Source: Escherichia coli
GTDB lineage: Bacteria > Pseudomonadota > Gammaproteobacteria > Enterobacterales > Enterobacteriaceae
Assembly: GCF_013315695.1 (NCBI RefSeq)
Contig: NZ_CP054353.1
DNA length: 64,000 bases
Direction: 5' to 3' (one strand)
In this document: in pieces, positions 2,714 through 48,524 of the stretch
How the letters are laid out: each line of letters starts with the position of its first letter
Position numbering within the stretch: the stretch's first letter is position 1
Translations under genes and position numbers: made by a program
The notes under the pieces: model-generated
What the model saw: the letters and a program-made list of their open reading frames with translations, nothing else
The model's database searches: none
What the model was told of the DNA's origin: nothing

Positions 2714-4738
<2,025 letters not shown>

Positions 4739-41874: not shown

Positions 41875-41883
41875 CACAAAGCG
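41875..41883. repeat. IS1 target-site duplication, left copy (CACAAAGCG)
   Basis: Identical 9-mer directly abuts both ends of the IS1 element. Confidence 0.85.
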
Positions 41884-41898
41884 GGTAATGACTCCAAC

Positions 41899-42402
41899 TT
41901 ATTGATAGTGTTTTATGTTCAGATAATGCCCGATGACTTTGTCATGCAGCTCCACCGATTTTGAGAACGACAGCGACTTCCGTCCCAGCCGTGCCAGGTG
42001 CTGCCTCAGATTCAGGTTATGCCGCTCAATTCGCTGCGTATATCGCTTGCTGATTACGTGCAGCTTTCCCTTCAGGCGGGATTCATACAGCGGCCAGCCA
42101 TCCGTCATCCATATCACCACGTCAAAGGGTGACAGCAGGCTCATAAGACGCCCCAGCGTCGCCATAGTGCGTTCACCGAATACGTGCGCAACAACCGTCT
42201 TCCGGAGCCTGTCATACGCGTAAAACAGCCAGCGCTGGCGCGATTTAGCCCCGACATAGCCCCACTGTTCGTCCATTTCCGCGCAGACGATGACGTCACT
42301 GCCCGGCTGTATGCGCGAGGTTACCGACTGCGGCCTGAGTTTTTTAAGTGACGTAAAATCGTGTTGAGGCCAACGCCCATAATGCGGGCTGTTGCCCGGC
42401 AT
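41899..42402 (-). CDS. insB: IS1 InsB (transposase C-terminal frame, expressed as InsAB' by -1 frameshift)
   Basis: 167-aa ORF matching IS1 InsB (…[21 protein letters not shown]…). Confidence 0.93.
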
Positions 42403-42596
42403 CCAACGCCATTCATGGCCATATCAATGATTTTCTGGTGCGTACCGGGTTGAGAAGCGGTGTAAGTGAACTGCAGTTGCCATGTTTTACGGCAGTGAGA
42501 GCAGAGATAGCGCTGATGTCCGGCGGTGCTTTTGCCGTTACGCACCACCCCGTCAGTAGCTGAACAGGAGGGACAGCTGATAGAAACAGAAGCCAC
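42321..42596 (-). CDS. insA: IS1 InsA (transposition inhibitor / N-terminal transposase frame)
   Basis: 91-aa [26 protein letters not shown]…; the A6C slippery run lies in the insA/insB overlap. Confidence 0.93.
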
Positions 42597-42646
42597 TGGA
42601 GCACCTCAAAAACACCATCATACACTAAATCAGTAAGTTGGCAGCA

Positions 42647-42970
42647 TCACCCACAAAGCGTATAATTTAATAAGCGTCCTAAACCACTGACGGTTTGTGA
42701 TAACGCTTCTTCTACTGCGCCCACCGAGCCATAAATCACCAGCGCGCCGCTAAAACGGTCGAGAAAACCGATATGCACATCGGCGGCTTTCAACGCTAAA
42801 TCACCGGCGATCATCGCCGTTTCTCCGGGAGTTAGCGTCATAATGCCAATTGCGCCCGCATCCGGAACGCCGATTTTCTTCGCCAGTTCCTCGCCGGGAT
42901 GCGCGATGAGATGCGCCAGTGTGACCTGTTTACCGGGCACAAATTCCTGAATGATGCGTTCTTTATCCAT
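42647..42970 (-). CDS. eutS: Microcompartment shell protein EutS with C-terminus rewritten by the IS1 insertion
   Basis: Product from ATG at 42970 ([21 protein letters not shown]…, permuted BMC domain); reading frame enters the IS1 inverted repeat and stops at 42647-42649. Confidence 0.88.
42652..42660. repeat. IS1 target-site duplication, right copy (CACAAAGCG)
   Basis: Identical 9-mer directly abuts both ends of the IS1 element. Confidence 0.85.
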
Positions 42971-43335
42971 GAGTCGCCGCCTGTGAAAAACTTTCGTGTA
43001 TCGTGACAATTTTTCGTCAGAGTAAATAACAAAATTCGGCAAGCGCGTTTAAAAGGTGAGGTAGATCACGAACAATGGGGAAAATACTTTATGCAAAGAA
43101 AATCACATACATCACATGAATACAAACAGGAGTCGATAAGTTTTATTTATCATATGTTACCCACCCCATTTTTAATGGTTCTTCGCATAACCCTATGTAG
43201 CATTTATAATAATTATCAGAATACATATCCCATGAACTGTTGTATTCTGAAAATATTATTATACTCACCCCATTTAAGGTACAACATAAACGATGAGTTT
43301 ATTCAGGGCATAAAAGAAATGGATGGATACCTGTA
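42971..43335. promoter_or_regulatory. Divergent AT-rich control region: eut operon promoter (upstream of eutS) and promoter of the glycosyltransferase gene
   Basis: 365-bp visibly AT-rich intergenic region between divergent eutS and the GT gene; the main eut promoter is known to lie upstream of eutS; individual sites not resolved. Confidence 0.4.
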
Positions 43336-44406
43336 ATGAAAATTCACTACCTTGTCACCACTCTCGAAACGGGAGGCGCTGAATTTGCGATTCCTGATAT
43401 TGTGACTACTCTACAAGATCTTGGTCATGAGGTGAAAATTTATGTATGTGAACCCCGAGATATGGGCGCGGCACCGCGTCTGAAAGCGGCCGGTTTATCC
43501 TGGTGTTTATTATCAAATCGGCGGCGTTCTGTTCCAGTGCTTGTCGGTGCTTATCTGGCAAAAATCATTTACGACAAACCCGATCTCATCTGGACTTCGT
43601 TAAGTTGGGGGACGCGTATTGGACAATGGGGCGGCCGACTTATGGGCATTCCGGTTATCAGTTTTAAACATAGCGCCAGCGTAAAACCAGCAACCTGGCG
43701 TATGCGCAGCATGTCACGTTTATGGATTGGCGATTCTGCAACCGTAACTCAATACCTGCATGAAACCATGCGGATCCCGAAGCAACAAGTGATGTGCTGG
43801 CCTTTTTTTCAGGCTAATCCGCAAGCTGCTCAAGCGAAAAAGTGGGACGGGGTATCAGTTTTACAATTAGGCACCGTTGGTCGCCTGCATGAAGTTAAAA
43901 ATTACGCAGGATTAATTACTGCACTCGCTTCGTTTGTCGATAAAAACCCGCAATTGCGCTCGCGAATCCGACTAACCCTTCTCGGTGAGGGAGCCGAACA
44001 AGAGGTTTTGAAAAAGACCATAACACAACACGCCATGGAGGATGTAGTTTGTTTAGCGGGGTTTTCTGCGGATATCGAAAATTTTCTTGCCGGATTACAT
44101 GTCTATATCCAAACTTCCCGCTACGAAGGGATGTGCCTCGCCGCACACGAAGCCATGAATGCAGGGCTTGCGATCATTACGCCCCCTGTAGGTGAACTTA
44201 AAGAATCGGTAATTGATGGTCATACCGGCTATATACTTAATGGCGAACTAACTCCAGCACTGGAGGAAGTACTTAACCGTATTTTCAATGAACCCACAGA
44301 ATTACAACACTATGGGCAAAATGCGCGTCAGTATGTATTACAGAAATTCAGCCATGAAAATTTTGTCCAGTCTGCAATCAACATTGTTAATAGACTTATT
44401 CACTGA
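43336..44406 (+). CDS. Glycosyltransferase, GT-B fold, family-4-like (retaining), orphan accessory gene
   Basis: 356-aa ORF; N-terminal Gly-rich motif (TLETGGAEFAIPDIVTTLQDLGHEV) and C-terminal EX7E motif (YEGMCLAAHEAMNAGLAIITPPVGE) typical of GT4 enzymes; lower G+C than neighbours. Confidence 0.75.
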   Translation: MKIHYLVTTLETGGAEFAIPDIVTTLQDLGHEVKIYVCEPRDMGAAPRLKAAGLSWCLLSNRRRSVPVLVGAYLAKIIYDKPDLIWTSLSWGTRIGQWGGRLMGIPVISFKHSASVKPATWRMRSMSRLWIGDSATVTQYLHETMRIPKQQVMCWPFFQANPQAAQAKKWDGVSVLQLGTVGRLHEVKNYAGLITALASFVDKNPQLRSRIRLTLLGEGAEQEVLKKTITQHAMEDVVCLAGFSADIENFLAGLHVYIQTSRYEGMCLAAHEAMNAGLAIITPPVGELKESVIDGHTGYILNGELTPALEEVLNRIFNEPTELQHYGQNARQYVLQKFSHENFVQSAINIVNRLIH

Positions 44407-44409
44407 ATA

Positions 44410-44445
44410 AGGCAGTAAAAAGGCATTTTTTGGTACTGCCTTTTC
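44410..44445 (+). terminator. Terminator-like hairpin after the glycosyltransferase gene
   Basis: GGCAGTA…TACTGCC stem with inner A5/T5 pairing, followed by TTTTC. Confidence 0.4.
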
Positions 44446-44954
44446 ACCGAATACTATGGTTATCGTACTTGTCGTGGCGATGGGAAAAGTCGTTACAGTT
44501 TTCATTCCCTTGCATAGCCGTGACGCCCCCTTTTCACACACAAAGAAAATGGTGGATGTTTTATACTCCTCCACCACCAAAGGCAGTCAAGATGGATAAG
44601 TTAATGCTCGCCCATGCCCCCAATTTATGGGCCATGGAAAAACGTCTTGCAAACAGCTGTGTACGGGAATAATAGCAGTGCGGGTATGAGCAAGACATTA
44701 TTTTATCATGACGGGCAAAATTGCAGCCGGACCTAGGGCGGTGCATTGCAGATGCTGAAACTGGACCCGCTATGTTTATTATCTCCAGAATTTAATGCGT
44801 CTGGAAGTACCTACAACTGCTGCGCCTTTTATTGATGGCATGCATACGCTTTCTGGTGTTGGCGACGTTACATTCATGATGCCTGGCTACAACTTAAGGG
44901 CTCGCCTCAGCAATTCTGAGTGGATGTACAGCGGCGTATACAGAAGTGGGTCAG

Positions 44955-44990
44955 CAAAACCGCTTACCCCGAATAAACAGGGTAAGCGTG
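44955..44990 (-). terminator. Terminator-like hairpin downstream of maeB
   Basis: Minus strand reads CGCTTACCC-tgtttattc-GGGTAAGCG followed by GTTTTGCTG. Confidence 0.45.
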
Positions 44991-45005
44991 ATTTAAAGGA
45001 ATGAA

Positions 45006-47285
45006 TTACAGCGGTTGGGTTTGCGCTTCTACCACGGCCAGCGCCACCATGTTGACGATACGACGTACCGATGCGATCGGCGTTAACACGTGAACCGGTT
45101 TCGCCACGCCCATCAGCACCGGACCGACTGTCACACCTTCCGAGCTGGAAACGCGCAGTAAGTTGTAACTAATGCGGGCAGCTTCCATGTTCGGCATCAC
45201 CAGAATATTAGCGGAACCTTTCAAAGGGCTGTCCGGCATACGGTCGTTGCGAATCGCTTCCACCAGCGCTGCATCGCCGTGCATTTCACCATCAATCATC
45301 AGTTCTGGCGCACGTTCCCTGACCAGTTCCAGCGCCTGACGCATTTTGCTCGACGACGGGCAGTCAGAAGAACCAAAGTTGGAGTGCGACAACAGAGCCA
45401 CACGCGGTTCAATACCAAAACGACGAACAGTTTCTGCCGCCATCAAGGTGATCTCCGCCAGCTCTTCTGCATCAGGCTCATCATTGACGTAGGTATCGGC
45501 AATAAAGGTGTTACCACTCGGCAACAGCAGCGCGTTCATGGCACCTGCGGTGTGAACGCCATCGCGATAACCAAAGACATTTTTCACCACGCTAAAGTGT
45601 TCATGATAATCGCCCACCGTACCGCAAATCATTGCATCGGCTTCGCCACGCTGAACCATGATCGCGCCGATCACTGTCGGGTTACTGATCAGCGCACGCT
45701 GCGCCTGCTCCTGAGTGACACCGCGACGCTTCATGATCTGGAAGTATTCGGTCCAGTACTCTTTAAAGCGCGGATCGGATTCGTTATTGACGATCTCAAA
45801 ATCAACACCCGCTTTGATCTGCAAGCCCAGTTTCTGAATGCGCATTTCGATCACGTTCGGACGACCAATAAGGATCGGTTTCGCCAGTCCCAGCGTTACC
45901 AGTTCCTGAGTGGCATGCAGAACGCGCGCCTCTTCCCCTTCCGGCAGAACGACGCGCTTCGGCGCTTTGCGAGCCTGGGAGAAAATCGGCTTCATAAACA
46001 GGTTGGTTTTGTAAACGAACTCCGTCAGCTTGTCGATGTAGACGTCGAAATCAGCAATCGGACGCGTCGCCACGCCCGACTCCATCGCGGCTTTAGCGAC
46101 CGCAGGAGCGATCTTAACGATCAAGCGCGGATCAAACGGTTTTGGAATGATGTATTCCGGACCAAAGCTCAGATCCTGATCGCCATAAGCTGAAGCCACC
46201 ACTTCACTCTGTTCCGCATGGGCCAGTTCTGCAATCGCGTGTACCGCCGCCAGTTTCATCTCTTCGTTGATGGCGGTTGCGCCAACGTCCAGCGCGCCAC
46301 GGAAGATGAACGGGAAGCAAAGCACGTTATTAACCTGGTTCGGGTAGTCGGAACGGCCGGTACAGATGATGGCATCCGGACGCACTTCTTTCGCCAGCGG
46401 CGGCAGAATTTCTGGTTCCGGGTTCGCAAGCGCCAGGATCATCGGCGCACGAGCCATTTTCTTCACCATTTCCTGGGTCAGCACTTTCGGGCCGGAACAA
46501 CCCAGGAAAATATCCGCGCCTTCAATCACATCATCGAGGGTACGTTTGCCGTCATCCACTACCGCATATGCGGCTTTGGTTTCCGCCATGTTTGGCTCAC
46601 GGCCCTGATAGATAACGCCTTTTGAATCGCAAACCACGATGTTATGTTTTTGCAGCCCCAGCGCCACCAGCAGGTTCATACAGGCGATTGCTGCGGCACC
46701 CGCGCCAGAAACCACCATCCGCACGTCGGAGATGTTTTTCTCCACCACGCGCAAGCCGTTGAGGATGGCGGCAGTGCTGATAATTGCCGTGCCGTGCTGA
46801 TCGTCGTGGAATACCGGAATATTCATCCGCTCGCGCAGTTTCTGTTCAATATAGAAACATTCTGGCGCTTTAATGTCTTCGAGGTTGATGCCGCCGAAGG
46901 TCGGTTCGAGCGCAGCGACGACTTCAATAAATTTGTCCGGGTCGAGTTCATCAACTTCAATGTCAAATACATCAATCCCGGCGAATTTCTTAAACAGAAC
47001 ACCCTTGCCTTCCATCACCGGTTTGCCTGCCAGCGCGCCAATGTTGCCTAACCCCAGCACTGCCGTACCGTTAGAGATCACCGCTACCAGGTTACCGCGC
47101 GCGGTATATTTGTAGGCTTTTAACGGGTCTTTTTCGATTTCAAGACAAGGTGCGGCAACGCCTGGTGAGTAGGCCAGCGCCAGATCGCGCTGCGTTGCCA
47201 GAGGCTTGGTTGGAGAAACCTGGATTTTCCCTGGAACTGGAAATTCATGGAAATCAAGTGCACTTTGTTTTAACTGGTCATCCAT
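45006..47285 (-). CDS. maeB: NADP-dependent malic enzyme (malic enzyme + PTA-like domain)
   Basis: 759-aa ORF. Confidence 0.96.
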
Positions 47286-47573
47286 TTGGTTGTTCCTTTC
47301 ACGTAACGTTCACAAATAAAGTGTGTGGGCAACAGCCCCTGCCCACAACGTGGCGCACATTATTACCTTGCCGGAGTCTACAGACTTTGAGCAAGTCCAA
47401 ACTCTCACCATTAATATAATGTTTTGGTAATAATCCTATAACACTGATGTTACCTGCTTAATCCAGCAATACCATGCCTGTCTGCTATGCTTTTTTGATG
47501 CGTTTAGCGAAATTTCTCAGAAGTGTGAATTAACGCACTCATCTAACACTTTACTTTTCAAGGAGTATTTCCT

Positions 47574-48524
47574 ATGAACGAGTTAGACGGCATCAAACAG
47601 TTCACCACTGTCGTGGCAGACAGCGGCGATATTGAGTCCATTCGCCATTATCATCCCCAGGATGCCACCACCAATCCTTCGCTGTTACTCAAGGCTGCCG
47701 GATTATCACAATATGAGCATTTAATAGACGATGCTATCGCCTGGGGTAAAAAAAATGGCAAGACCCAGGAACAACAGGTGGTCGCTGCATGTGACAAACT
47801 GGCGGTCAATTTCGGTACTGAAATTCTCAAAATCGTACCCGGTCGCGTGTCAACAGAAGTTGATGCTCGCCTCTCTTTTGATAAAGAAAAAAGTATTGAG
47901 AAGGCGCGCCATTTGGTGGACTTGTATCAGCAACAAGGCGTTGAGAAATCACGTATTCTGATCAAGCTGGCTTCAACCTGGGAAGGAATTCGCGCGGCAG
48001 AAGAACTGGAAAAAGAAGGTATTAACTGCAACCTGACGCTACTGTTTTCTTTTGCTCAGGCGCGGGCCTGTGCAGAAGCAGGCGTTTTTCTGATTTCGCC
48101 GTTTGTCGGGCGTATTTATGACTGGTATCAGGCGCGTAAGCCGATGGACCCGTATGTGGTGGAAGAAGATCCAGGCGTTAAATCAGTACGCAATATCTAC
48201 GACTACTATAAGCAACACCACTATGAAACCATTGTGATGGGCGCGAGTTTCCGTCGCACCGAACAAATCCTCGCCTTAACCGGCTGCGATCGACTGACTA
48301 TCGCACCGAATTTGCTAAAGGAGCTGCAGGAAAAAGTTTCGCCAGTGGTACGTAAATTAATCCCACCTTCTCAGACGTTCCCACGCCCAGCTCCCATGAG
48401 CGAAGCGGAGTTCCGTTGGGAGCACAATCAGGATGCAATGGCGGTAGAAAAACTGTCTGAAGGCATTCGTCTGTTCGCCGTTGATCAACGCAAACTGGAA
48501 GATCTTCTTGCCGCCAAACTATAA
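47574..48524 (+). CDS. talA: Transaldolase A
   Basis: 316-aa ORF. Confidence 0.95.

Follow-up and report, generated by a model that had tools for sequence, protein, structure and literature searches.

A probable decayed GINT1_N-family gene in the gap between a glycosyltransferase gene and maeB of Escherichia coli

Within a 64,000-nucleotide stretch of an Escherichia coli chromosome (contig NZ_CP054353.1, assembly GCF_013315695.1; hereafter the window), in the region of the eut operon, maeB, talA and tktB, a GT4 glycosyltransferase gene and maeB are separated by several hundred base pairs holding no evident gene, and the question is what this DNA is or once was. The first-pass annotation, made from the letters alone, had described it as approximately 560 bp of non-coding DNA at 44446-45005 and had proposed that it could be a degraded islet gene, islet border sequence or a non-coding RNA. 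We determined that the gap extends from the GT4 stop codon (44404-44406) to the maeB stop (45006, minus strand), that is 44407-45005 or 599 bp; the earlier interval lies inside the real gap and is slightly too short. All three short open reading frames that had been reported for it are present in the ORF list at the positions given there, and none of them matched a family in Pfam or NCBIfam.

43336-44406, plus strand: GT4 glycosyltransferase gene, the first of a two-gene islet; 356 aa, intact; Pfam Glycos_transf_1 and Glyco_transf_4
44430-44672, plus strand: ORF of 80 aa with a TTG start
44561-44746, minus strand: ORF of 61 aa
44795-45004, plus strand: ORF of 69 aa
44952-45005, no strand assigned: core E. 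coli DNA flanking maeB on its 3' side; the same 54 bp occur in 5248 of 5426 genomes
45006-47285, minus strand: maeB

It was noted that the term non-coding is accurate insofar as no intact gene is present, but as a description of the DNA it falls short, as the coding capacity appears to have been destroyed in what was formerly a gene. Judging from the sequence comparisons below, we put the probability that 44407-44951 is an ordinary, heavily decayed pseudogene, a feature of an already-known kind rather than a new element, at about 95%. The earlier suggestion of a degraded islet gene thus appears to be right for this segment, which aligns with the 3' 60% of an intact 300-aa gene of the GINT1_N family. 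Border sequence had been a correct guess for the last 54 bp only (44952-45005, with the border at approximately 44951/44952), the rest being former coding DNA.

Among 5426 complete E. coli genomes, megablast found the exact 599-bp sequence in only 6, at 100% identity in each, and a more sensitive blastn search identified a homologue with approximately 80-85% identity in a further 84 of the 5426. In all matches listed, the homologous DNA was located inside an annotated CDS named 'glucosamine inositolphosphorylceramide transferase family protein', represented by the following proteins.

WP_022645960.1 / WP_224053104.1: intact counterpart proteins of 300 aa, Pfam GINT1_N (PF24793)

The intact gene follows the same GT4 gene directly and lies between it and maeB. 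Annotated views of four genomes gave the order eutS, a GT4 gene of 1071 bp, a second gene of 903-969 bp and a convergent maeB, with the second gene starting at or just before the GT4 stop. When compared with WP_022645960.1/WP_224053104.1, the window copy occupies the same chromosomal position and retains approximately 85% nucleotide identity across 474 surviving aligned bases, but it is without the start codon, codons 1-52 and codons 72-129 and cannot encode the protein. A search of 5.8 billion proteins found no intact protein at 66-100% identity to the E. coli gene, and the allele of the window is therefore known only in decayed form.

We then considered what the intact gene encodes. The intact E. 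coli protein matched Pfam GINT1_N with E=3e-35 and 122 bits, against a gathering threshold of 27 bits, and it also gave a sub-threshold match to Pfam GH43. Its AlphaFold model, built on a 45-sequence alignment, is a beta-propeller (pLDDT 95.8), and the best PDB fold matches of this model were GH117, GH130, GH43 and GH62 enzymes together with sialidases (Foldseek E of approximately 1e-7, TM of approximately 0.5-0.57); a PDB search with the sequence of the intact protein returned no relative. According to the structure prediction, the product of the lost gene is a five-bladed, GH43-like beta-propeller and a putative sugar-active protein.

The lesions were mapped relative to the intact allele at locus L005. 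From 42652 to 44420 the window is collinear with the intact allele at 91% identity, and the alignment breaks after this point. Downstream of the break, the ancestral protein was recovered by tblastn on the window in three different frames with internal stops.

44407-44951, plus strand: probable pseudogene remnant of the second islet gene, aligning to L004/L005 5785-5826 and 6001-6509
44417-44421, plus strand: junction of a 157-bp deletion in an A5 run, with GAAAAA at intact 5609 and 5766; the window reads GCAGTAAAAAGGCA
44419-44481, plus strand: scrap corresponding to ancestral codons 53-71 (tblastn, KGIFWYCLFTEYYGYRTCRGD against KGVLY--LFAESYDYRTRRGD)
44475-44481, plus strand: junction left by a 181-bp deletion that shifts the frame and is bounded by 7-bp direct repeats, TGGCGAT (intact 5820 and 6001), with a single copy at window 44475
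44475-44624, plus strand: remnant of codons 130-180 in a second frame, lying within the 80-aa ORF 44430-44672 (tblastn, 67% identity over 51 aa)
44617-44955, plus strand: remnant of codons 179-300 (pairwise-alignment lesion table, tblastn)
after 44616 and after 44628, plus strand: two 1-bp deletions
after 44719, plus strand: 18-bp deletion
44734-44736, plus strand: nonsense codon, TAC>TAG
after 44793, plus strand: 8-bp deletion
after 44876, plus strand: 1-bp deletion
44917-44919, plus strand: nonsense codon, TGG>TGA
44956-44958, plus strand: ancestral stop codon, TAA>AAA

The 157-bp deletion took out the ribosome-binding context, the ATG and codons 1-52, and the 181-bp deletion removed codons 72-129 and shifted the frame. 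Indels of +6, -3 and -18 bp are in frame and could be allele differences older than the inactivation rather than part of the decay. After repair of the frame, the 184-aa translation had 66% identity with the product of the intact E. coli gene (E=3e-79), and its identity with the Shimwellia orthologue was 47% (E=3e-52). A GINT1_N match had been expected for this translation, and Pfam gave nothing at E<=0.01; neither the ORFs of the window nor the repaired translation gave a Pfam match at E<=0.01 or 0.1. The identification consequently rests on pairwise and positional homology and not on the domain, and the window sequence is best described, from its alignments, as a derivative of a GINT1_N family member and not as a scorable member.

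We assessed whether selection still acts on either gene by a relative-rate test on alignment columns in which at least three of the four outgroup orthologues agree. The remnant in the window carried 25 unique amino-acid changes and the intact E. coli allele carried 2 (binomial p=6e-6), while the adjacent GT4 gene showed 8 and 5 lineage-specific changes in the same test (p=0.58). Between the two alleles, GT4 had a dS of 0.31, a dN of 0.045 and an omega (dN/dS) of 0.145. The aligned nucleotide identity between alleles was 85.2% for the remnant, 90.8% for GT4 and 98-99% for eutS, maeB and talA. The rate excess of the remnant and its lower identity compared to GT4 indicate that the second gene has long been dead and that its neighbour was kept under purifying selection, and these substitution patterns suggest that the orphan GT4 functions without its long-dead partner. 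The segment thereby combines homology to an intact gene at the orthologous position, disabling lesions and relaxed constraint, as a pseudogene does.

Separately, it was noted that the protein database holds frameshifted versions of the other allele (P0024, P0053, P0091 and P0078), which may be assembly errors. These versions had suggested recurrent decay of the second gene, which we do not claim: the complete genomes that were checked, in which the locus is annotated 'hypothetical protein', carry the intact gene.

The extent of the islet was determined by comparison with K-12 MG1655. On its left side the window matches K-12 as far as 43081, which lies 111 bp upstream of eutS; on the right the match resumes at 44952, where 44952-45398 aligns to K-12 4046-4491 at 95%. 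Because 44952-45005 is common to K-12 and to most of the genomes surveyed (5248/5426), the right border of the islet was placed at approximately 44951/44952; the second gene's ancestral stop codon falls at the border itself. Conserved K-12 intergenic DNA across the whole gap, which would have spoken against the first-pass description, was not observed, as only 44952-45005 aligns with K-12. The islet of 1870 bp stands in place of 128 bp of AT-rich, unrelated K-12 DNA. This K-12 segment (L003 3918-4045) lies between eutS and the maeB terminator and has no similarity to the islet.

The two islet alleles (window 43082-44951 and L004 4282-6509) share the same borders and are approximately 9% apart in GT4, compared to 1-2% in the flanking core genes. 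Such a pattern fits the import of a diverged islet allele by homologous recombination rather than an independent insertion. The GT4 protein was used to scan GTDB species genomes for a donor or for the window allele in intact form, and only distant relatives with at most 66% identity were found (Serratia sp. M24T3, Acetobacteraceae). Strain GF131 (L002 10930-12599 compared with window 43336-45005) is a recombinant of both islet alleles. Over its first ~800 nt, GT4 in this strain is of the intact-pair type (2 differences); its final ~250 nt, like the entire pseudogene, are of the window type with 0 differences, and this switch of allele type within GT4 places the crossover inside the gene.

Several further features were observed on the left side of the islet. 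Its left non-coding part holds an 81-aa ATG ORF (43091-43336), which abuts the GT4 start upstream, and a promoter-like site, TTCGCA-17-TATAAT, at 43182-43210. A 768-bp IS1 (41884-42651) interrupts eutS within its last ~8 codons and is flanked by a 9-bp target duplication, CACAAAGCG (41875-41883 and 42652-42660). The nearly identical strain AF3 (L001) is also without the segment 42653-43183 beside IS1, an IS-adjacent deletion through which eutS and its upstream region are gone.

Two local hairpins were identified in the gap, and both bear on whether the gap could act as RNA.

44410-44442, plus strand: perfect 9-bp hairpin, AAGGCAGTA/TACTGCCTT, followed by TTTTCAC; z = -3.4 (plus strand) and -5.0 (minus strand)
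44961-44988, minus strand: maeB intrinsic-terminator-like hairpin with an 11-bp stem and 7 GC pairs, followed by GTTTTGCTGA (GTTTTG) on the minus strand

The terminator-like hairpin that had been noticed at the right end of the gap is the second of these, and it proved to be real. It is located 18 nt downstream of the maeB stop, folds with a z of approximately -4.3 to -4.5 and has the features of a predicted rho-independent terminator, namely a GC-rich stem-loop and a T-run just after a stop codon. It is conserved in K-12 and in the 5248 genomes, including strains without the islet, and by inference it would also end islet transcription in the intact allele. The hairpin at 44410-44442 lies directly after the GT4 stop, spans the 157-bp deletion junction and is terminator-like with a 15-nt loop; from its sequence and position it could have arisen by chance or could have become useful secondarily as a terminator of the orphan GT4 gene.

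We weighed three other accounts of the gap. In one, the gap is or contains a non-coding regulatory RNA, for instance an sRNA or the structured 3' UTR of a GT4 or maeB transcript, as had been raised in the first-pass annotation. The two hairpins fold better than shuffled sequences, which speaks for such an RNA, but the second is the conserved terminator of the core maeB flank and is present without the islet. The region as a whole folds no better than shuffles (z +0.30 on the plus strand and -0.13 on the minus strand), a scan of 42000-47600 against Rfam returned nothing at E<=1, and the 2 promoter-like sites detected fall below the 4.9 expected from shuffles. As the sequence is also fully explained as decayed coding DNA, we consider an RNA gene or element here highly improbable. 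A genuine small protein appears just as improbable, although the 69-aa ORF at 44795-45004, for instance, is recorded as the hypothetical protein WP_001330583.1, is annotated as a CDS in three of six complete genomes and has been called with its exact sequence on 182 contigs. The three other complete genomes carry identical DNA and leave it unannotated, and every occurrence of the ORF is in E. coli that carry the window allele, always unnamed and matching no Pfam or NCBIfam family. Its first ~27 codons are in the frame of the ancestral GINT1_N gene and a 1-bp deletion puts the remainder out of frame; the sequence upstream (CTCCAGAATTTAATG) contains nothing resembling a Shine-Dalgarno motif.

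The third account, to which we give the smallest chance of all, takes the gap as an islet border or integration scar, such as an att site or the terminal repeats of a mobile element, and not as former coding DNA. It draws on the position of the right border inside the interval first noted (approximately 44951/44952) and on the replacement of 128 bp of K-12 DNA, which differs from a plain insertion. Against this, direct or inverted repeats flanking the islet were not found beyond short chance matches, no att signature was seen, and the islet has neither an integrase nor a transposase of its own; moreover, homology to a protein-coding gene continues up to the border, as far as the stop codon of that gene.

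On the pseudogene reading, the history of the locus can be reconstructed as follows. The islet between eutS and maeB would first have held two co-oriented, abutting genes, encoding GT4 and then a 300-aa GINT1_N-family protein. The second gene was probably inactivated by two microhomology-mediated deletions, of 157 bp at the A-run and of 181 bp between the TGGCGAT repeats, which may have arisen by slippage or illegitimate recombination at these short repeats. The remnant would then have drifted unselected, acquiring more frameshifts and two nonsense codons, losing its stop codon and undergoing a burst of substitutions that change amino acids; this order of the lesions is one that we infer. No functional product would be expected from the remnant, its short ORFs being presumably accidental frames in the debris, and the region would at most be transcribed passively, as read-through of GT4.

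The biological weight of this result is small. The identity of the gap can be considered settled and the right border of the eutS-maeB islet fixed at approximately 44951/44952, and an annotation error can be flagged, as the 69-aa 'hypothetical protein' WP_001330583.1 appears to be a pseudogene fragment. The locus offers a clean small example in which deletions at short repeats kill a gene and its remains decay neutrally beside a constrained partner. It may also serve as a natural knock-out, and a comparison of this allele with the 84 strains that carry the intact pair could help to assign a function to the GINT1_N protein.

Adjacent and co-oriented GT4 and GINT1_N genes were also found in Shimwellia blattae, Pluralibacter gergoviae and Serratia sp. 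M24T3 at unrelated loci, and this pairing at unrelated loci argues that the ancestral state was a two-gene cassette. The gene order and orientation of these cassettes are those of E. coli, and both proteins are approximately 64-66% identical to their E. coli counterparts. In Shimwellia blattae the cassette lies beside suf and in Pluralibacter gergoviae beside a fimbrial operon; both genes are intact in these cassettes, and the pair behaves like a portable unit of two genes. Neither islet protein matched a PADLOC defence model, and our literature search found no paper on the eutS-maeB glycosyltransferase islet or on bacterial GINT1_N proteins. As a tentative proposal, which we ourselves hold to be somewhat unlikely, the GT4 and GINT1_N pair may be an uncharacterised, horizontally mobile glycan-modifying cassette of the Enterobacterales, with family members in the Acetobacteraceae, in which GT4 stayed under purifying selection long after the death of its partner and would hence work alone or with another partner. 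A weaker variant would have the deletion-junction hairpin at 44410-44442 kept as a terminator that newly serves the orphan GT4.

Plant GINT1, a glucosamine inositolphosphorylceramide transferase of family GT64, shares its N-terminal domain family, GINT1_N, with the bacterial protein and is the enzyme after which the Pfam domain is named. The bacterial protein consists of the GINT1_N domain alone, without the GT64 catalytic domain of plant GINT1, and a separate GT4 gene adjoins it. E. coli is not known to make inositolphosphorylceramide, and the annotated name should therefore not be taken as a function. The closest likeness among systems of known fold is to the five-bladed propellers of GH43, GH62, GH117 and GH130, which the predicted model of the intact E. 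coli protein resembles in fold at a sequence identity of only 9-16%.
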